A stretch of 62,217 bases of DNA, counting the filler. It is 5 parts of 5 records of this genome, joined end to end, with 100 filler letters (N's around TTAATTAATTAA, not from the genome) between each part and the next. Parts side by side here need not be neighbours in the genome. Positions count along the whole stretch, not along the records: positions 14,097 to 29,468 come from DRR723986_24388; 4 more parts are not named here. One strand, given 5' to 3'. The notes beneath the pieces were generated by a model. The model was not told the origin of the DNA, did no database searches, and saw only the letters and a list, made by a program, of their open reading frames with translations. This document shows, one piece after another, positions 13,997 to 29,468 of this stretch (position 1 is its first letter; the number at the start of each line of letters is the position of its first letter). The translations under genes and the position numbers were made by a program.

Positions 13997-14096
13997 NNNN
14001 NNNNNNNNNNNNNNNNNNNNNNNNNNNNNNNNNNNNNNNNTTAATTAATTAANNNNNNNNNNNNNNNNNNNNNNNNNNNNNNNNNNNNNNNNNNNN
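13997..14096. other. Artificial contig linker
   Basis: N-run with TTAATTAATTAA; composition changes across it. Confidence 0.98.
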
Positions 14097-20451: not shown

Positions 20452-21735
20452 GTGGCGATCTATCATCTCAGTGCGAAAGTGATCAGCCGGGCAGGGGGCC
20501 GGTCATCGGTCGCAGCCGCCGCCTACCGGACGGCTGGGCGGCTGCGGGATGACCGGCAGGGGTTGGAGCATGACTACAGCCGCAAGGGCGGAGTTGTGCA
20601 TTCCGAGATCATGGCCCCCGAAAATGCGCCCGACTGGATGCGCGATCGCGACCAGCTCTGGAACGCGGTCGAAGCCGTCGAGAAGCGGCGCGATGCCCAA
20701 CTTGCTCGCGAGATCGAAGTGGCGCTGCCGCGTGAGCTTGATCGGGGCGAGAGGTTGGAGCTGTTGCGCGGATTCGTGCAGCGAGAATTTGTCGATCGCG
20801 GCATGATCGCGGACGTGGCCGTTCACGAGGGCAAGGCCCGTGATGGCCACGGTCAGCCCCATGCACATGTCATGCTGACCATGCGCGAGCTGACCGGCGA
20901 GGGGTTCGGGAAGAAGGATCGCAGCTGGAATGCGCCGGACCTGCTGATGGGCTGGCGCGAAGCCTGGGCGCGGGACGCGAACACGGCCCTTGAGCGGGCA
21001 GGGCGGTCGGAGCGGATCGACCACCGGTCCCTCGATGTTCAGCGCGCCGAAGCCGAGCAACAGGTCGAGCGGGCGCGCGGGGGCGGGCAGGAAGAGCTCG
21101 CGCTTGAGCACGAGAAAAAGGTGGTCGAGCTCAGTCGCGAGCCCGAGCCGAAAATCGGGCCATCGGCCAATGCTCAGGAAAAGCGCGGGATCGTCACGGA
21201 GCGCGGCGAGGCTTTCCGCGCGGCGCAGGCGCGCAATGCACAGCGCCAGGAGCTGGGCTGGCGGCAGTTGGAATTGCGGCTTGAGCTGATGGAGCGGGGG
21301 CGCGCCTTCATTGCCACCGCGCGCGAGCGGCTGGATCAGCTTTGGGGCCGCGCTGAAGCGGCGATGTCACGGATCAAGGAGAGGGTTATGGGCGAGGTCG
21401 AGAGGCCACAGGCAGGTGCTGAGCGGGGCGATATTGATGCGCGCCGGGCGGCGGTGTTGGGGCGCGATGTTGATCGACCCGAGGTGCAAGCGCCGGATGT
21501 CGGGCGGGAGAGGGTTGCGCCCGACGATCCAGACCGGGAGCGTCGGGACGCCATCCTTGGGCGTGTGCGCGATATCGGACAGGAGCGGGATGCAGCGGCG
21601 GTAGAACGGGACATTGCCGCCCGCGACGGCGAGGGCCGTGACCAAGGGCGGCGGGATGACATTCTCGGGCGGGGGCGTGATACTGCGTCCGATCCCGGGA
21701 AGGGCCGCGATCGCGACAGAGATAGAGAACGGTGA
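20452..21735 (+). CDS. mobA: MobA/MobL (MOBQ) relaxase
   Basis: GTG start MAIYHLSAKVISR; AAAAYR, LWNAVE, AREIEVALP, VHE..QPHAH and RIDHRS motifs. Confidence 0.93.
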   Translation: MAIYHLSAKVISRAGGRSSVAAAAYRTAGRLRDDRQGLEHDYSRKGGVVHSEIMAPENAPDWMRDRDQLWNAVEAVEKRRDAQLAREIEVALPRELDRGERLELLRGFVQREFVDRGMIADVAVHEGKARDGHGQPHAHVMLTMRELTGEGFGKKDRSWNAPDLLMGWREAWARDANTALERAGRSERIDHRSLDVQRAEAEQQVERARGGGQEELALEHEKKVVELSREPEPKIGPSANAQEKRGIVTERGEAFRAAQARNAQRQELGWRQLELRLELMERGRAFIATARERLDQLWGRAEAAMSRIKERVMGEVERPQAGAERGDIDARRAAVLGRDVDRPEVQAPDVGRERVAPDDPDRERRDAILGRVRDIGQERDAAAVERDIAARDGEGRDQGRRDDILGRGRDTASDPGKGRDRDRDRER

Positions 21736-21761
21736 AAGACATTAGCAGAGAGGTGGCCAAG

Positions 21762-22154
21762 ATGAAGAAATGGCGCGTTGTTCTCGACGCCGCGAAGGCC
21801 CCGACCTGCGGTGACTGGGTTGCCGTGAGCGGACTTTGCCCGGGCGAGGACGAAACAGCACGGTTCCTCTTTTTGGACGGGACGGAGGCAGATGGGTTCA
21901 CGTTCCTCGATGCCTCACTGGAGCAGGTGGGCAACTCTCCCAGTGGCGAGCAGGTTCCGTGGCTGCACTTTCCAGACTGCATGGAGATCGTCGGAGTGGA
22001 ACGTCAGGAATGGCGACCGCCGAGCTGGCCGCACGACAAGACGTTGTGGCGTCTGACCCTGGTAAGCCTGCCGTCGAATGTCGAATTCGAGAAACGGCTG
22101 TTGGTTGGTCAAGAAAGCAGACGTGGTGTCCTGAGCCGGTTAGGGTTGAGATAG
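21762..22154 (+). CDS. Hypothetical protein downstream of the relaxase
   Basis: GAGGTG RBS before ATG 21762; alternative GTG 21732 overlaps the mobA stop. Confidence 0.6.
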   Translation: MKKWRVVLDAAKAPTCGDWVAVSGLCPGEDETARFLFLDGTEADGFTFLDASLEQVGNSPSGEQVPWLHFPDCMEIVGVERQEWRPPSWPHDKTLWRLTLVSLPSNVEFEKRLLVGQESRRGVLSRLGLR

Positions 22155-22186
22155 GCCAGGCACTTGGGTGTTGCGCACCCCAAGGC

Positions 22187-22474
22187 CTATTTGCAGCGCG
22201 GCAGACTCAGGAGGTTATTCGGTTCGGCTCCATCGGCCTCTGTTTTCAGGTATTTCTTTCCATTCCGCGTAGCGATGATGACCCAGACCGAGTTGCCATT
22301 GACGCTGGTCCAGAAGCGCCAAGTGCCGTCTTCGATACCTTTGATGGCAACATCGAGCTTAATGCACCAAGGACCACCACTCTTGGAACCAGTGGCTCCG
22401 CCGATGCTGTCAATACGCCGGTCAGAGTCCGCACCGTCTGGAATAATACAGGTGATCTGATGATCCTGTGGCAT
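22187..22474 (-). CDS. DUF3892 family protein, paralogue 2, 95 aa
   Basis: N-terminal QITCI and C-terminal KYLKTEADGAEPNNLLSLPRC; AAGGA RBS. Confidence 0.82.
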   Translation of the reverse strand: MPQDHQITCIIPDGADSDRRIDSIGGATGSKSGGPWCIKLDVAIKGIEDGTWRFWTSVNGNSVWVIIATRNGKKYLKTEADGAEPNNLLSLPRCK

Positions 22475-22575
22475 GGGATAAATCCTTCTTTTTATGACAT
22501 TCTAGGATGCCAGGTTGAAACGGACCCGCAGAGGTAGATGCTATCTGCGAGCCCTGATGTTGTAGGGTCATAGCC

Positions 22576-22839
22576 TTAGCAATCAGGGAGATTGTCCAAG
22601 TTGTTGCTCGACGACTTATCGGCGGTCGAGCGGAGGTATTTGCCGGTCGTTCCGTTCACCACGGTGATGTCGACACGGGACGTGCCAGCCTGCTGGACGT
22701 AGTAGGTATGCGTGCCGTTTTCGATATCGCGGATCGCGTCAGCCTTCAGCCGTGGGGACCATGCCTCGCCCGATTTGCAAAGCTTGGTGATGTCGCCGTC
22801 CTTGTCTTTTCCCGACGCGGTAACTTTTCTGTCAGCCAT
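22576..22839 (-). CDS. DUF3892 family protein, paralogue 1, 87 aa
   Basis: AIRDIENG..YYV and C-terminal KYLRSTADKSSSNNLDNLPDC; GGAG RBS. Confidence 0.82.
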   Translation of the reverse strand: MADRKVTASGKDKDGDITKLCKSGEAWSPRLKADAIRDIENGTHTYYVQQAGTSRVDITVVNGTTGKYLRSTADKSSSNNLDNLPDC

Positions 22840-22859
22840 CTTTTCGTTCTCCATTTTGG

Positions 22860-22924
22860 TTTACATAAGTATAGCTAGTACTACACTTGAGATCAGATAT
22901 AGTGATCGCTATACTTCTGTCAAC
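22860..22924. promoter_or_regulatory. Overlapping divergent promoters with two palindromic operators
   Basis: AGTATAG-N6-CTACACT (22868-22887) and GATATAG-N6-CTATACT (22896-22915); plus-strand TTTACA-N16-TACACT; minus-strand GTTGAC-N16-CTATAT. Confidence 0.7.
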
Positions 22925-22946
22925 CCGCGAACAGAGAGAATCTTGC

Positions 22947-23270
22947 ATGTCAGAAAAATTTGGCGAAAAGCTCAGAAAAATCCGAACATCCAAGAACATG
23001 ACGCAGGAGGAGCTGGCGACGGTCCTTGGGTCTTCAAAGGCATATGTCTGGCAACTCGAAAACAAGAAGAATGCCAAGCCGTCCGCTGAGTTGTTGCTAA
23101 AAATCGCAAATCATTTTGGGGCGTCGCCAGAGTTCTTCTTGGATGATACGCAAGACGAGCCTTCTGACCGACAAATCGAGGATGCCTTTTTCAGAAAATT
23201 CCATAAGCTGTCTGAGAATGACAAGCGCACGATTGAGAGGATAGTTTCAGGTTTTGACGACGACGATTAG
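22947..23270 (+). CDS. capH: CapH-like XRE HTH repressor, 107 aa
   Basis: HTH with SSKAYVWQLEN..KPSAE; C-terminal EDAFFRKF with F81-F82-R83, matching the recalled CapP cleavage site of CapH. Confidence 0.8.
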   Translation: MSEKFGEKLRKIRTSKNMTQEELATVLGSSKAYVWQLENKKNAKPSAELLLKIANHFGASPEFFLDDTQDEPSDRQIEDAFFRKFHKLSENDKRTIERIVSGFDDDD

Positions 23271-24048
23271 CCGCCCTCCGATGAAGGAGGCCAACCGCCT
23301 TACAAGGCTCTGGCAGGACCACGGCCCGAACACTTACCCACTGGATATTTCAAAGCTCATTGATGGCGCACTTCAAAACAGCGATTTTGGCGGCGAACTG
23401 AAAACCAAGATAGGCAGCTACGATTCCTTCGAAGGGTGTCTTGTTAAAACAAAGAACACCGACAAGTGGACGATTTTGCTGAACTCGGAAATCGAGAACA
23501 AGCGGCGTCAACGGTTCACATATGCCCATGAGCTGGGACACTTCATGTGCCATCGGGGTTTGCGGGATCGTTTCGAAGACAGCGATGATACCCTGAACGA
23601 TTTCAGGGATAAGATAGAAACCGAGGCCAACGTGTTTGCGTCGTGGCTACTTATGCCTGCCAACCTTCTCAGAGATGAGTTTAGCGGGATTGGCTGGAAT
23701 ACAGATTCCCTGTGCGAGATAGGAAACCGTTTCGAGTGCTCACTCCAGGCGAGCGCTTTGCGATTTGTTGGGCTGTCCAGCAAGCCGGTTGCATTTGTCG
23801 TGTCGCGCGATGGAATGGTCGTCTGGGGCAGCAAAAGTAAATCAGCTCCGTATATGACAGCGTTTTGCTTTGGAGATGAACTACCCAAGGCGTCCCATGC
23901 TCTTACAGCCCACCTCAATGGTGAAACCTGCGCATTGTCGCAGGATTCCGGCTTGGCTTGGAATGAGTTTCGAAGCGCGAAGGAGAGCCAATATTTTGAT
24001 TATTCCGGGCGGGGATATCAGTACACCTGCATTGAATTTGTTGGATAA
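23254..24048 (+). CDS. capP: CapP-like ImmA/IrrE Zn metallopeptidase
   Basis: FEGCL, RFTYAHELGH (HExxH), ETEANVFASWLLMP and RFECSLQA motifs, then a GAF-like tail; overlaps the repressor end (alternative ATG 23281). Confidence 0.82.
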   Translation: MTTTISRPPMKEANRLTRLWQDHGPNTYPLDISKLIDGALQNSDFGGELKTKIGSYDSFEGCLVKTKNTDKWTILLNSEIENKRRQRFTYAHELGHFMCHRGLRDRFEDSDDTLNDFRDKIETEANVFASWLLMPANLLRDEFSGIGWNTDSLCEIGNRFECSLQASALRFVGLSSKPVAFVVSRDGMVVWGSKSKSAPYMTAFCFGDELPKASHALTAHLNGETCALSQDSGLAWNEFRSAKESQYFDYSGRGYQYTCIEFVG

Positions 24049-24476
24049 ATTGACGAATACCACTGATAAATCAGCCATAGAAAATATGTGATCCCGGCGT
24101 GCGCCGGTCTCGCTTTGAGCGATAGTCAGGGCAGGGAATCGACAGGCTGACGCCTGCTCACCCCAACCCTGGCAGCTTCCAAATCCTGTTGATCCGCCTG
24201 CCATCCCGGCAGGTTCGAGAAAACCGGCAAGCGCCGCCCGAGGGCGTCGGTTCCGGTCGAGAATTCCGGTTCCTCCCACGCGCAGGCACGCGGTTCCCTC
24301 CCAAATTCACGCCCTCCACCCGGTTGTCACGGCCCCGCCAGGCCGCAGGACGGGCTTTGCCCTTACCTGCTCTGCCCTTCGGAATGCATGGGCATTCCAA
24401 AGATCAGAACAGGAAGGCCCGCCCATTGGCGGAAAGGGGAAGAGACCCGGACCGCGTCACTCAAGGAGGGTCACAA

Positions 24477-25415: not shown

Positions 25416-25671
25416 GTGTTGTGTGGGTGATCGTGGGTGTAGGCGGTTTTAGGGTGACCTGTCGGCGGGCAACCTGAAGGCTACCCGCCGACAGGTCCGG
25501 CGCTTCGCGCGGACGGGCATGAATGCCCGGAGGCGACGCATCTGGATATCTCAGTTGCCATACCGACAGAGGTCTGTCGCCCGGACGACGCAGGCAGCTT
25601 CTAAGCACGGAATCTGGTGGATAACGGAAGACAGTCTCGATTGTTGTCGTTTGGTGCAGTATTTGCACGGC

Positions 25672-26478
25672 ATGATAGGCAGCAAAACATATGAGAAGCT
25701 GATTCCTCGCCACGAACGCGAGGCACTGGAGCAGGCGCTTGGAATGGATTCGGGATATGTTCTTGATTTCAGCGACCGCACCTTCAATGACTTCTTTTAT
25801 GAAACGATTGCTATTGACCCGGAAGACCAGTCGCGGCTCTTTAACGGTCGTGGAACGTCAAAGGCAAAGAGACTGCGTTCGTTTATTGAACGTGCCCAAC
25901 CGGCGCTTGTGGCGAAGATATTGCGCGAAATGTGGGAATATCGGGAGGCAATAGAGTTTGCGCCATCTGTGCCGAACGAAGAAAAGCTGAAGGAGTCCTA
26001 TTTTTCCATCATTGCCCGGATCGAGGGGCGTGCGGACGCCATTGACACATCTGCAATCGAGACGTTCGAGCCGAATGAAACGCTGGAAGAGCTTGTCGCT
26101 TCAATACGCCGCGATTTGGACGCGAACAAGCCACAGGCCGCTCTGGACCGCCTTCACACATATTGCATGAAGCGTTTTGCGTCTCTTGTCCGCAAACATG
26201 GTGGCGGAGAGTGCGGCAAGGACGATGCGCTTCACGCGCGGGTAGCCAAATACGTAAAGATTCTGCGCGAGCAGCAGAACCTGAATCCGATTTCAGAACG
26301 TATTGTGAAAAGCTCGATCAGTGTGTTTGAAGCTATGAATCCTGTCCGCAACGACCAGTCGTTCGCGCACGACAATCCCGACTTGGTGCAGATGGAAGAA
26401 GCTCGTTTCGTGTTTGACAGCGTGACCGCGTTCCTGCGCTTTTCCAAAGCTATCGACGGAAGGTTCTTCGAGGATTGA
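25672..26478 (+). CDS. AbiJ-like abortive infection protein with Abi_C (HEPN) C-terminus
   Basis: N-terminal MDSGYVLDFSDRTF..SKAKRLR; C-terminal ALDRLHT and RNDQSFAHDN (Rx6H). Confidence 0.75.
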   Translation: MIGSKTYEKLIPRHEREALEQALGMDSGYVLDFSDRTFNDFFYETIAIDPEDQSRLFNGRGTSKAKRLRSFIERAQPALVAKILREMWEYREAIEFAPSVPNEEKLKESYFSIIARIEGRADAIDTSAIETFEPNETLEELVASIRRDLDANKPQAALDRLHTYCMKRFASLVRKHGGGECGKDDALHARVAKYVKILREQQNLNPISERIVKSSISVFEAMNPVRNDQSFAHDNPDLVQMEEARFVFDSVTAFLRFSKAIDGRFFED

Positions 26479-26484
26479 TGCGGA

Positions 26485-26949
26485 TCAGGTGCGGCGTGTC
26501 ATAAGGCGGATCGCGGCTTCTTGCGGTCCCCATCGAAACGAGAACGTGTCTGACACATCAAACCAGCCGTTGCCGTCACCTGCCCCGTGATTTGCGCCCA
26601 TGCACGAACACTGACAGTCATGCCCAACTGCGTTGCGACAGGCCGGTGCGCACTTCTCCATTTCTCGAAATGGCTGAACGACATAGACCCGACCATAGCG
26701 ATCCAACGTACCATCTACGAAGCGGTTGAGCCAGCTCAGGGGGAGTTTCCAGGATTTTTCCATATGTGCAAAACGGATTGTTGGCCTGCGGTTGCCCGTG
26801 GCCAAGCCCGTGAGCCACTGGCGATTGTCAGCGCGATACGGCAGACGGGCCGTCAGCTTGTCGCCTTTCAGGCCCGAGCGAACGATTATCGGTATATCAG
26901 GCTGCGCCCACTGGCGGCGGATTGAGGGAGGAATGTTCGATGTGTCCAA
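26485..26949 (-). CDS. Cys-rich hypothetical protein, 154 aa
   Basis: TTG start after AAGGAAG; CAPAC-x7-CQCSC-x4-HG cluster. Confidence 0.7.
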   Translation of the reverse strand: MDTSNIPPSIRRQWAQPDIPIIVRSGLKGDKLTARLPYRADNRQWLTGLATGNRRPTIRFAHMEKSWKLPLSWLNRFVDGTLDRYGRVYVVQPFREMEKCAPACRNAVGHDCQCSCMGANHGAGDGNGWFDVSDTFSFRWGPQEAAIRLMTRRT

Positions 26950-26991
26950 AGGTGTGTCTTCCTTAAGAAATATTGGTTTGCAAACACATGG

Positions 26992-29468
26992 CTAACCTAC
27001 GCTTTCCAGTAGCGCGATTTCGTCTTCGGTCAGGTCGAACAGGTCATAGACGATGCTGTCGATCTGGGCTTCGGCCTGGGCGATTTCGGCGGTCAGGCGG
27101 GCGATTTCAGCGCGGTCGCGGTTGATCCAATCTTCCCAGTCGGAGCGATCGGTCAGTGGAATGTCGGCCTTGAACACCTTCTTCACTTCGGCGCGGAAGG
27201 CGGCGAAGTCGGGCAGAGTCCACCATTCCTTGAGCTTGTTGGTCAATTTGGGATCGCGTTCAGGTGGGCAGAGATCGGGAATGCGACGTGTGAGAGCCAC
27301 TTGCAGCTTTAAACGTTCCTGAGCGGATTTCTGAGCCATGACGGCTTGCGATGCTAACGCTTGGCGGCTGCTTTCAGGCATTTCGGGAATAGGCAACTGC
27401 CCAACATATTGGGCTTTCATCCTGAAGTATCCACCGCTGGCAAGCGGAGTTAACGAGCGAAACACGAACCACATGGTCGTTGAGTTCAGAAGCCCCGCAA
27501 TAGCATAGTCATCAGAGGGCAAAGCAAACGCAGTTGTTTCAAGGTAACTACCGGATTCATCGAGGTGAAAAGGGTTCTCTGCGGCGATGTCCCTATACGT
27601 GATTTTAGTCTTCTCGAAACCAGGCACGTATGCCTCTTGTGGCTGTTGAAGCTCAAACCACTCTTGTTTGGCCGCTCGATTTTCCAAGCGTTCTTTAAAT
27701 GGCAGTAGCCAGTCTCGGATGGCAGGATAGTCATCAATTTCGATCCGGTTCTTGGGTATGTAGATCAGCCATAGGCCGCGCGGTTCTGCCCGCCAGCGTT
27801 TCAGGTCCTTGCCTTCGAGGAAGGGTTTCAGCAGATCGGCAGACTTTGGGTCCTGTGCGCAGATACGCTCCTTGGTCGCGTTGTCGATCACAAAGGCCGC
27901 GTTCAGGCCGGTCTTGATGCCGTAGAGCGGTGATCCATAGACTTCCTTTAGGGTCTTCCTGCCCTTCTTGATCTTGTCCCGTAGAGCGCGCAGGGCGGGG
28001 TTTTCTAGCTCCCATGATCCGGCCCCCAGAGCAGTTTGCGGATACGGGCCGGCGGCAGCTTCCCAAGTGGCGAGGAAGTTATTGTTTGGCAGGGCATCTA
28101 CTTTCCAGAATCGCAGATCGTGCCCCTTGGGCGCGATCCCGCGTTTCATGGTCAGGATGGCCGGATAGGTGGTCACACCTTCGAAGACTTGCAGGTCGCC
28201 AAAATCGACTACGCTTTCGATGGTCGCCTCTTTCAGAAGGTATTCGCGCAGGGGCTTGCCCGATCCGGTCTTGAAGAAGGTGTTCGAGGAAATGTAGCCC
28301 AAGCGCCCGCCCGGTTTCAGCAAGCGCAGGCCGCGTTCGTAGAAATAGCAGTAGAGATCGGCCCGGTCGGAAACGACCTCATAGCGCTTTTCCAGATAGG
28401 GTTTCAGGAGCTTCAGGAATTCCATCCGCACATAGGGCGGGTTGCCCAGGACCACGTCAAAGCCGCCTTCGGCAAAGACGCCGGGGAAGGCCGTTTCCCA
28501 GGTGAACGCGTGATCGAGATAGGCGAAGTTGCTGTCCTCGATCAGGCTGTCACCGACACGGATGCTGCCCGACAGGCTGTCCAGAACCTTGCCGCGCCGG
28601 GCAGTCTTGATCCAGAGCGACAGCTTGGTGATCTCGATGCTTTCCTCGTTCACGTCCACGCCGAAGAGGTTGTCGGTCAGAATTTCGCTGTCCGGGATAT
28701 AGTCGAGAAGATCGCCAAAATGTTCGGCCTTGGGCAGCAGGTCTTTGATCTTGTCGTTCACGCGGGTCAGTTCGGCCTTCATGAAGTCGAAGGCCATGAT
28801 CAGGAACACACCGGAGCCACAGGCGGGATCAACAATGCGCAAGGATTTCAGGCGATCGCGATAGGCTTGCCAGGCGTCCAGCTCGGCCGACTTTTTCCGC
28901 CAGGGGATATTTTCGTAGTCGGTGACATCCGCGCCCTTCTTGGCGTGAGCGCGCAAGGTGTCGTCGAAGATTTCCCGCAGGTGCGTGCCCAGGGTTTCGG
29001 CGACGATGAAGCGCGCGATGTAATCAGGGGTATAGACCACCCCGTCACGCTTGCGCCGCCCGCTTGTGCCAGTGGTTTTCTCAGGCTCTTCCTCTTCACC
29101 GCGCGCGATCGCTTGCAGGCGTTCCACGTCCGCGATGGACTGTTCGAAGATATGGCCGAGGACCGTGACGGAGACTTCGGAGGCGAAGTCATACCCGCCC
29201 AGAGTCTTGAACCCCTCGCAGATGTCATCGGGTATGGTCAGCCCGTTGATCACCGCATCTTCGCGGAACAGACCCCCGTTGTAGCGCGGGATTTTCAGCT
29301 CGTTGTTACCCTCGTCGATGGCGCGGAACAGACCCTTGAAATTGTCCCAGACGGGGCGAGGGTTGTAAGGGTCGCGCGCGACGAAGGCGTTTTCCAGTGT
29401 GTTGTCTGGTAGCAGGCCGGTGTCTTCAGCAAAGGCAATGAACAACACCCGATCGAGGATCTTCTGCG
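26992..29468 (-). CDS. Type IIG (Eco57I-like) restriction-modification enzyme, 5'-truncated
   Basis: YNGGLF, LGHIFEQSI, GVVYTP, DPACGSG and GNPPY motifs, then a TaqI_C-like TRD; nuclease N-terminus lies beyond the gap. Confidence 0.88.

Follow-up and report, generated by a model that had tools for sequence, protein, structure and literature searches.

A mobile four-gene CapH/CapP and DUF3892 cassette: a further copy of a system listed in 2022, with candidate operators and swapped regulators

CapH and CapP, an XRE-type repressor and an M78 zinc metallopeptidase, form a two-protein switch that was first found with cyclic oligonucleotide-based antiphage signalling systems (CBASS), and all described CapH/CapP operons share a divergent gene order (Lau et al. 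2022, bioRxiv 10.1101/2022.04.27.489752). Residue W35 anchors CapH on CapP, which in Escherichia coli is switched on by single-stranded DNA (ssDNA) (Calloji et al. 2026, 10.64898/2026.05.16.725639). Among the systems named by Lau et al. is a 'DUF3892 system' of Sulfitobacter sp. CW3, which the legend to Figure 6F gives as CapP, CapH and two DUF3892 proteins. That preprint states no function, operator or survey for this system, and credits Burroughs and Aravind (2020) with the link of DUF3892 to defence and to genes encoding a helix-turn-helix (HTH) protein and a metallopeptidase (Lau et al. 2022). The subject of the present analysis is a stretch of DNA of 62,217 nucleotides, referred to as the window, that carries one more copy of this system: capH and capP, divergent from two DUF3892 genes termed dufB and dufA (Table 1). 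A preliminary description had taken the locus for an undescribed inducible system; that claim falls, since the architecture had already been named in CW3.

The CW3 locus shows essentially no difference from that of the window. It carries these four genes, arranged alike; its dufA product is 100% identical, CapH 99.1% and CapP 96.9%, and the DNA is 94% identical over 6.5 kb of backbone. The dufA product is likewise 100% identical in nine species-level loci, CW3 included, and the protein WP_037275356.1 listed by Lau et al. is annotated on a Pseudosulfitobacter plasmid whose cassette is 97.2% identical to that of the window. The window therefore holds a further copy of a system printed in 2022 as an unstudied association, and represents no new kind of system. 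What is added here are the ends of the cassette, a swap of its regulators, candidate operators, the finding that a form with a single dufB-like gene is commoner, signs of purifying selection and the defence-gene neighbourhoods of the family. DUF3892 is a family with about 2,500 representative clusters (at 50% identity); a literature search on PF13031 returned unrelated Plasmodium gene names only. For bench work the locus offers a clonable unit of three or four genes, two natural regulator alleles for one and the same payload and defined candidate operators.

Table 1. Features of the cassette, with positions counted along the window
Feature	Position	Strand	Description
dufA, distal DUF3892 gene ('A-type')	22187-22474	(-)	95 aa; Pfam PF13031 4.4e-15, 56.3 bits
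dufB, promoter-proximal DUF3892 gene ('B-type')	22576-22839	(-)	87 aa; Pfam PF13031 1.4e-10, 42.0 bits
capH, XRE-type repressor	22947-23270	(+)	107 aa from ATG; W35, F82-R83
capP, M78 zinc metallopeptidase	23281-24048	(+)	255 aa from ATG; H83-E84-x-x-H87
Whole mobile cassette	22183-24066		about 1.9 kb; ends from homology breaks
Candidate CapH operator O1	22869-22886		18-bp palindrome RTRTAG-N6-CTAYAC; putative binding site
Candidate CapH operator O2	22897-22914		second copy; overlaps the -10 of both divergent promoters; putative binding site
Promoter-like site, capH-capP	22887-22915	(+)	TTGAGA, 17 nt, TATACT; consensus match, 10/12 in consensus scan
Promoter-like site, dufB-dufA	22896-22923	(-)	TTGACA 22923-22918, 16 nt, TATATC 22901-22896; putative, found by eye

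Calls of open reading frames (ORFs) together with Pfam and PADLOC searches bear out the four genes where the preliminary description had placed them. As it had also stated, dufA and dufB encode two paralogues of about 90 amino acids (aa) that share the pattern YL(K/R)..AD....NNL..LP.C; they are 42% identical over 67 aa (E 1e-11), and both lie above the Pfam gathering score for DUF3892 of 22.3 bits. Three of the genes have alternative starts. The longest frame of dufB (22576-22854) begins at an in-frame ATG further upstream at 22854 and encodes 92 aa, that of the XRE gene (22887-23270) begins at a TTG and encodes 127 aa as against 107 aa from the ATG at 22947, and the peptidase gene has a TTG start at 23254 that yields 264 aa. 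The shorter starts of dufB, capH and capP are those of the RefSeq annotation in three plasmids in which the block is 97.2-97.8% identical. Because the choice between TTG and ATG decides whether capH and capP overlap, the overlap previously reported holds for the TTG start (17 nt) but not for the ATG at 23281 that is annotated in the plasmids, which lies 10 nt past the stop of the XRE gene. The 107-aa repressor with F81-F82-R83 is recovered from the ATG at 22947, and the HExxH motif of the peptidase reads HELGH at residues 83-87 of the 255-aa form.

Profile matches and the closest solved structures place the XRE/M78 pair in the CapH/CapP family, as had been supposed. The capH product matches the PADLOC capH profile (2.4e-28, positions 3-102 of 103) and Pfam HTH_3 (9.3e-13), and its closest solved chain is 7t5u (E 2.3e-14), which by residue numbering corresponds to the HTH domain of E. 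coli CapH. The capP product matches the PADLOC capP profile (6.7e-47, up to position 215 of 242) and Pfam Peptidase_M78 (6.2e-19); its closest solved chain is 7t5t, labelled 'CapP toxin' (E 6.3e-23), in an alignment that reaches chain residue 222 of 291 and leaves the last 50 or so residues of this CapP unaligned. In common with the CapH/CapP pair of the E. coli MS115-1 type III CBASS, the window encodes an XRE repressor with W35 and F82-R83 and an HExxH M78 peptidase, with capH followed by capP and both divergent from the regulated genes, here dufB-dufA. The predicted zinc site of CapP comprises H83-E84-L-G-H87 and a downstream glutamate in an ETEAN stretch (E113/E115), and in the alignment to 7t5t, as read by eye, R76 and W182 take the places of R90 and W196, which contact ssDNA in the groove that central HTH and C-terminal GAF domains form in CapP. 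CapH contains F81-F82-R83-K84, and its W35 and F82-R83 carry the same numbers as in E. coli CapH; for F82-R83, the cleavage site that CapH holds in its C-terminal dimerisation helices, the equivalence is by position only, as the solved C-terminal domain (7T5W) is absent from the sequence-search matches. An F-R pair is also found in the verrucomicrobial locus L061 and in a second type of CapH described below.

Other two-protein systems resemble the pair less closely. In DdrO/IrrE (PprI) of Deinococcus and in ImmR/ImmA of ICEBs1 and phi105 a damage-activated M78 peptidase likewise cleaves an HTH repressor, and IrrE chains are the second and third solved matches of this CapP (2.6e-09 and 8.2e-08). 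These pairs, however, control a chromosomal repair regulon or the excision of an element, and the proteins of the window match CapH/CapP far better.

The 107-nt spacer between dufB and capH contains a 33-nt imperfect inverted repeat (22858-22925) within which the two candidate operators lie. Whereas the E. coli operator is a 22-bp element, the candidate here is a pair of 18-bp palindromes of the pattern RTRTAG-N6-CTAYAC. This pattern occurs at two places only in the 62-kb window, with 0.02 occurrences expected by chance. L024, whose cassette is 72% identical, retains its half-sites, as do L013 and L014, although there the central 6 nt and the interval from one site to the other have diverged. 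O1 is situated just downstream of the likely start of dufB transcription. The promoter-like site of dufB was missed by the consensus scan, its -10 element being without the final T. From these positions CapH may be expected to repress both divergent units via O1 and O2. In the dufB-dufA spacer a search for RNA structure found nothing (z -0.83).

The limits of the cassette were obtained by blastn of the window against related loci. In six loci that have another left flank (L003, L013, L014, L018, L019 and L022) homology begins at 22183-22186, 1-4 nt beyond the stop of dufA, and in L001 it extends over 22104-24150 only, where the cassette adjoins a BsuBI/PstI-type restriction-modification pair. 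The cassette lies between a MobQ relaxase gene with a 140-aa ORF and ardC in at least 11 loci (L002, L004, L005, L006, L009, L010, L011, L015, L016, L109 and L116), and away from relaxase and ardC in L001, L013, L014, L018, L019 and L022. Its guanine-plus-cytosine (GC) content, 0.47-0.55 across 22000-24249 in 500-nt windows, is below that of the left (0.60-0.68) and right (0.59-0.63) flanks, in agreement with the first impression of a block poorer in GC than the adjoining mobA and ardC. Pairwise ratios of non-synonymous to synonymous substitution (dN/dS) are 0.00-0.12 for all four genes, with 0.00-0.06 for dufA and 0.05-0.08 for dufB, from which all four are judged to be under strong purifying selection. 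Since sharp ends recur in different flanks, the block is not the stump of a larger operon; the sequence comparisons identify it as a self-contained, horizontally mobile cassette of four genes, and the compact module proposed at the outset is upheld.

CapH and CapP were first discovered alongside CBASS (Lau et al. 2022), and the block might accordingly be read as what is left of a more extensive defence operon, CBASS or another, whose cyclase and effector have been lost. This reading was rejected and is close to refuted. In the 32 tandem loci that have a divergent capP (18 from genomes and 14 from metagenomes, in the surveys below) dufA is never separated by a further gene from its neighbour of different orientation, and the cassette ends 1-4 nt past dufA in the six other-flank loci mentioned above. 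Both DUF3892 genes are under strong purifying selection, and in Lau et al. (2022) the four-gene form has an entry as a separate system. In the window itself, as originally noted, the regulated side consists of dufB and dufA only, with no CD-NTase cyclase, nuclease or effector for CBASS before a convergent 140-aa ORF that ends at 22154, past dufA.

The best comparative evidence that the switch exists for the DUF3892 pair comes from an apparent exchange of the regulators. The dufA-dufB stretch (22183-22840) is 90-97% identical at the DNA level in L012, L017, L018, L019 and L022, and 76% identical in L023; in all six loci homology breaks exactly at the start of dufB, and for L012 and L017 it picks up again at 24066, within the leader of ardC. 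The swapped regulators, here called type 2, are an HTH protein of 113 aa and a peptidase of 294 aa that are 28-31% identical to those of the window and are also capH and capP by PADLOC (1.9e-26 and 1.1e-62). The type-2 intergenic region measures 410 nt and has a 24-nt inverted repeat of its own (88% complementary). Because regulators and intergenic region have been replaced and the DUF3892 pair kept, two CapH/CapP lineages, each with its own operators, appear to drive the same payload in the same backbone. The type-2 spacer (L012:2922-3334, and likewise in L017, L018, L019 and L022) also appears to contain, on the dufB strand, an additional small ORF that would encode about 45 aa and has a ribosome-binding site to itself, and a GC-rich hairpin between this ORF and dufB.

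The swap also bears on the idea that the XRE/M78 pair is the element's own ImmR/ImmA-type switch for transfer or replication genes, with the DUF3892 genes as bystanders. The pairs of ICEBs1 and phage phi105 share the two-protein logic (Lau et al. 2022, 10.1101/2022.04.27.489752), and in the viral contigs L099 and L100 a DUF3892 gene occupies the place of a first early gene. This explanation is nevertheless very improbable, as the four genes move as a block (22183 to about 24066) independently of relaxase and replication genes, the DUF3892 pair persists through an exchange of its regulators, and the GC content of the block is below that of the backbone. In addition, the operator pattern is present in the window only between capH and dufB, and only dufB-dufA share the operator region with capH-capP.

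The position of the cassette beside transfer genes points to another possible beneficiary. The DUF3892 pair could serve the plasmid, in establishment, in anti-defence or in modulating the DNA-damage response in the manner of ardC, and be triggered by conjugative ssDNA. Such a role would suit the 11 or more loci in which the cassette stands between the MobQ relaxase with the 140-aa ORF and ardC, the activation of E. coli CapP by ssDNA (Calloji et al. 2026) and the occurrence of B-type genes on 12 predicted viral contigs. It is considered improbable, since the same cassette is found without flanking relaxase or ardC in L001, L018, L019 and L022, lone relatives are chromosomal and stand beside defence genes, and Pfam, PADLOC and solved-structure sequence searches gave no similarity to known anti-restriction or anti-SOS families.

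Two surveys were made of how widely DUF3892 genes face capH/capP. That of A-type genes used one genome per species, in which 327 stretches matched, 194 encoded relatives and the best 80 were kept; that of B-type genes used metagenome contigs, in which at least 594 stretches matched, at least 325 encoded relatives and again the best 80 were kept. A B-type locus was regarded as assessable if at least 1500 nt of upstream sequence was present, as in 63 of the 80. Among the A-type loci a divergent capP was found in 24 of 80, beside a tandem pair in 18 and beside a single gene in six (Pseudorhodobacter L021, Caldisericales, Anaerolineae, Parvibaculum, Verrucomicrobiota and Parcubacteria). A further tandem pair lies on a 1.5-kb contig that ends first, two single genes have a capP nearby in another arrangement, and 53 single genes have no capP within 4 kb. 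Among the B-type loci a divergent capP was found in 40 of the 63 assessable, with a tandem pair in 14 and a single gene in 26; 22 single genes with visible upstream sequence and one tandem pair are without capP, 16 loci have too little upstream sequence (14 single, 2 tandem), and at one the ORF finder called no DUF3892 ORF. The arrangement of capH-capP divergent from tandem DUF3892 genes thus recurs, in 18 of 80 species-level and 14 of 80 metagenome loci, as a survey suggested in the preliminary description was meant to establish.

The commoner form in metagenomes is a lone dufB-like gene facing capH/capP, which accounts for 26 of the 40 loci with a divergent capP, a count to be read with the dependence of these loci in mind, since L109-L126 are close copies of the cassette of the window. 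The CapPs of the 40 B-type loci are diverse: eight are within 60% of type 1, eight within 60% of type 2, and 24 are more distant from both. In several single-gene loci (e.g. L131, L153, L163, L165, L172 and L179) a convergent gene directly follows the DUF3892 gene, so that the three-gene unit capP-capH-DUF3892 stands alone. Of 401 genomes of the class, 11 have any match to the B-type profile and two a strong one, and one of these two has the order capP-capH-DUF3892. The 12 predicted viral contigs carry their B-type genes mostly in same-strand arrays of small ORFs, and two have a divergent capP-like gene. A locus with an A-type gene in the order capP-capH-DUF3892-(109-aa ORF)-DUF2188 (L038:829-3325) unites two uncharacterised families that Lau et al. 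(2022) list separately.

The DUF3892 family is large. In an exhaustive profile search 2,538 representative clusters reached E <=0.001 and 1,075 reached <=1e-10, and the best 150 profile matches are mostly 88-130 aa long. dufB has 506 relatives, of which the 120 listed are 64-99% identical. The alignment of A-type sequences has 16 invariant columns and that of B-type sequences 24, and both subfamilies share a cysteine near the N-terminus, a KYL(K/R)-T/S...NNL..LP.C tail and a cysteine at or beside the C-terminus. The two invariant cysteines are C9 and C94 in A, and C21 and the C-terminal C87 in B. In a tree of 61 aligned sequences, with the groups defined by retrieval, A and B separate with 100/100 support and long branches, which indicates that the A/B pair is an old combination and not a recent duplication. 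Some chains contain the domain twice: P0243 (197 aa) and P0244 (212 aa) each have two Pfam stretches, and P0278 and P0376 each have two DUF3892 profile stretches. Two of these four proteins also extend at the C-terminus in a helical segment. A word-based search gave only two longer relatives of dufA and the best 150 of the profile search a few, and in a few long proteins that have no other Pfam match, such as P0322 (841 aa) and P0349 (788 aa), DUF3892 forms the C-terminus. Confident AlphaFold2 models of dufA (predicted local distance difference test, pLDDT, 81; predicted template modelling score, pTM, 0.68) and dufB (pLDDT 87, pTM 0.75) both depict a small domain rich in beta structure, with a single helix at its centre and a short one at the C-terminus. 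The fold has been described as a three-stranded meander plus a helix, and DUF3892 is fused to Min-Wnt effectors and has been proposed as a sensor of viral RNA or of ribosomes that have been altered (Burroughs, Aravind and co-workers, bioRxiv 10.1101/2025.01.14.632903). These Min-Wnt (Lipocone) fusions share the Pfam family and, as proposed, the setting of antiviral conflict, whereas here the domain stands alone, in two copies and with no fused effector.

The working proposed for the cassette takes over the CapH/CapP logic of E. coli. CapH would bind the two 18-bp palindromes over the back-to-back promoters and so hold down both dufB-dufA and its own operon. By analogy with E. coli, ssDNA arising from DNA damage, phage replication and possibly other DNA transactions would activate CapP, which would cut CapH between F82 and R83 and allow DUF3892 expression to rise. 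The DUF3892 proteins, as the only regulated genes of the switch, would be its payload. Their working unit is proposed to be a dimer, a homodimer where the gene is single and an A/B heterodimer here, because either subfamily can be found as a single gene behind capH/capP and because two domains are fused in one chain. This dimer would bind a target in conflict with phages or other invading DNA and carry out no catalysis, as is suggested by a size of about 90 aa, a non-enzymatic look and the company of defence genes. That the E. coli logic applies and that a DUF3892 dimer is its sole, binding-type payload against phages or incoming DNA is considered the probable explanation. If DUF3892 alone protects or arrests cells, this would explain why the small gene travels on plasmids and phages and in defence islands of many phyla.

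A bolder and rather doubtful version may be put forward, in which CapP-CapH-DUF3892 is a complete minimal stress or immune module. Here a single DUF3892 fold of about 90 residues, as a homodimer or in the window as an A/B heterodimer, would make up everything that a DNA-damage sensor puts out. By binding and without catalysis it would clamp a target, either a nucleic acid or something associated with ribosomes, so that the cell or the invader stalls. If true, it would be among the smallest defence payloads known and would explain why the same small gene stands before pAgo, Thoeris, restriction-modification and other systems.

Several observations weigh against the payload reading. PADLOC gave no match for the products of dufA, dufB or the 140-aa ORF. 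The dufA model has a best Foldseek hit in the PDB of E 0.035 (ribosomal protein L25, TM 0.3) and a best Z of 3.0 by VIA-align against 48,161 chains, and the dufB model has a best VIA-align Z of 2.8 and a best BFVD E of 0.013, so that neither has a meaningful match to a solved or viral fold. Because no fold matches, the label of binding protein draws on size and context only. On the side of the switch, CapP has Asp100 in the column of the switch cysteine of Thauera CapP, although the acidic residues after it are kept, and its mode of inactivation may therefore differ; the missing cysteine is no bar to membership, as some CapP homologues lack it (Calloji et al. 2026). Compared with E. coli CapP, the C-terminus is about 30 residues shorter and the C-terminal domain only partly alignable, and CapH has A32, K40 and K44 in place of the DNA-contact residues S32, R40 and R44. 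The regulated genes also differ from those of the E. coli CBASS, being two DUF3892 genes with no cyclase or nuclease. With no capP nearby in 53 of 80 A-type and 22 of 63 assessable B-type loci, DUF3892 does not depend on this switch, and the company of defence islands is an association, not proof, so that it amounts to guilt by association.

Sequence searches of solved structures with dufA and dufB found nothing below E 0.5, and a feature search of the ESM Atlas returned DUF3892 clusters only. In the structure comparisons a Pyrobaculum virus ORF (2x5c) was the top row for both models, followed by N-domains of tRNA-splicing endonucleases, all far below a meaningful level, and these candidates were set aside.

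Lone DUF3892 genes keep the company of defence islands. The nearest lone relatives of dufA, with 77-81% nucleotide identity, lie in tight same-strand arrays with defence genes: 18 nt after a pPIWI-associated nuclease gene in L020, between capH/capP and ThsB (8.2e-125) in L021, two genes after a short pAgo (1.5e-118) in L025 (1717-2001), and between a CHAT protein and a PDC-S54-like gene in L026. Four different defence loci of a single bacterial family group appear to have taken up the same small gene. A close dufA relative adjoins an Aga nuclease gene. Among the more distant relatives, a lone DUF3892 gene in five loci of Verrucomicrobiota (L040, L052, L057, L061 and L063) stands immediately upstream of the genes of a type I restriction-modification operon, in which a short HsdS-like gene is followed by HsdM. 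Others adjoin genes for TIR-like, Mrr-like, DUF5677 and DUF4325 proteins, toxin-antitoxin pairs, integrases and transposases, and B-type genes are found upstream of genes for type IIG restriction-modification enzymes, for DUF4011 helicases, for DUF4917 and for components of ABC-3C. In L036 (258-1589) an A-type gene follows a WYL-WCX regulator that resembles CapW/BrxR.

DUF3892 could alternatively be an accessory sensor, adaptor or regulator for nearby or other defence systems, and after DNA damage the cassette would then provide additional DUF3892. The dufA genes 14-18 nt from the pPIWI-associated nuclease (L020) and the CHAT protein (L026), those before ThsB and after pAgo, and the B-type genes preceding type IIG restriction-modification genes and DUF4011 helicases would all fit such a role, as would the C-terminal domains of P0322 and P0349 and the sensing of viral RNA or altered ribosomes proposed for the Min-Wnt fusions (10.1101/2025.01.14.632903). 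The reading is held to be unlikely, for in many loci DUF3892 is the sole gene of the divergent unit with a convergent gene next, the cassette of the window being closed by a convergent ORF in the same way, and no partner family recurs across contexts. The payload reading, with the DUF3892 dimer as the output of the switch, is preferred.

Sequencing runs gave some indication of expression. Of 23 runs listed, 13 are recorded as RNA, and the assembled contigs carry no strand, ends or level. Contigs from four RNA-library runs of three studies cover dufA, dufB and capH-capP, and in two runs contigs bridge the dufB-dufA spacer, which is compatible with co-transcription. One RNA-library run also holds the type-2 junction at 22840. 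In runs X1, X3 and X5 no listed contig extends over 22872-22925 and the capH-capP contigs start at 22926, 22934 and 22953, from which no inference is drawn, and a contig of X8 (22373-23910) spans the dufB-capH intergenic region.

The 140-aa ORF at 21732-22154 has no family match and goes with the MobQ relaxase rather than with the cassette: it is found in loci with a mobQ context and not in those with other left flanks, and L001 retains its final 80 nt or so. The flanks of the cassette are a MobA/MobL relaxase gene (4.8e-67) and ardC (ArdcN 7.5e-42 and MPTase-PolyVal 1.4e-47). Downstream of ardC, 25519-29448 holds further cargo of defence type: a gene whose 319-aa product has an Abi_C domain (2.8e-08), a 154-aa ORF that belongs to no family, and a type IIG restriction-modification ORF (PADLOC 7.7e-120) whose N-terminus is cut, the profile match starting at position 236 of 1066.

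The window as a whole appears mosaic or joined, with breaks near 14.0-14.8, 29.5, 38.3 and 47.3 kb. Its first 14.0 kb carry genes of chromosomal type, among them a DNA polymerase III alpha ORF that stops at 14044 after 731 aa. The part from 14.8 to 29.5 kb is plasmid-like, with genes for ParA, RepA, a coupling protein and MobQ, then the cassette, ArdC, Abi_C and the type IIG restriction-modification protein, and is followed by Tad-pilus genes. From 38.3 to 47.2 kb the third-position GC content is about 0.38, against 0.55-0.77 elsewhere in the window, which ends with DUF1501 and PSD1 genes.

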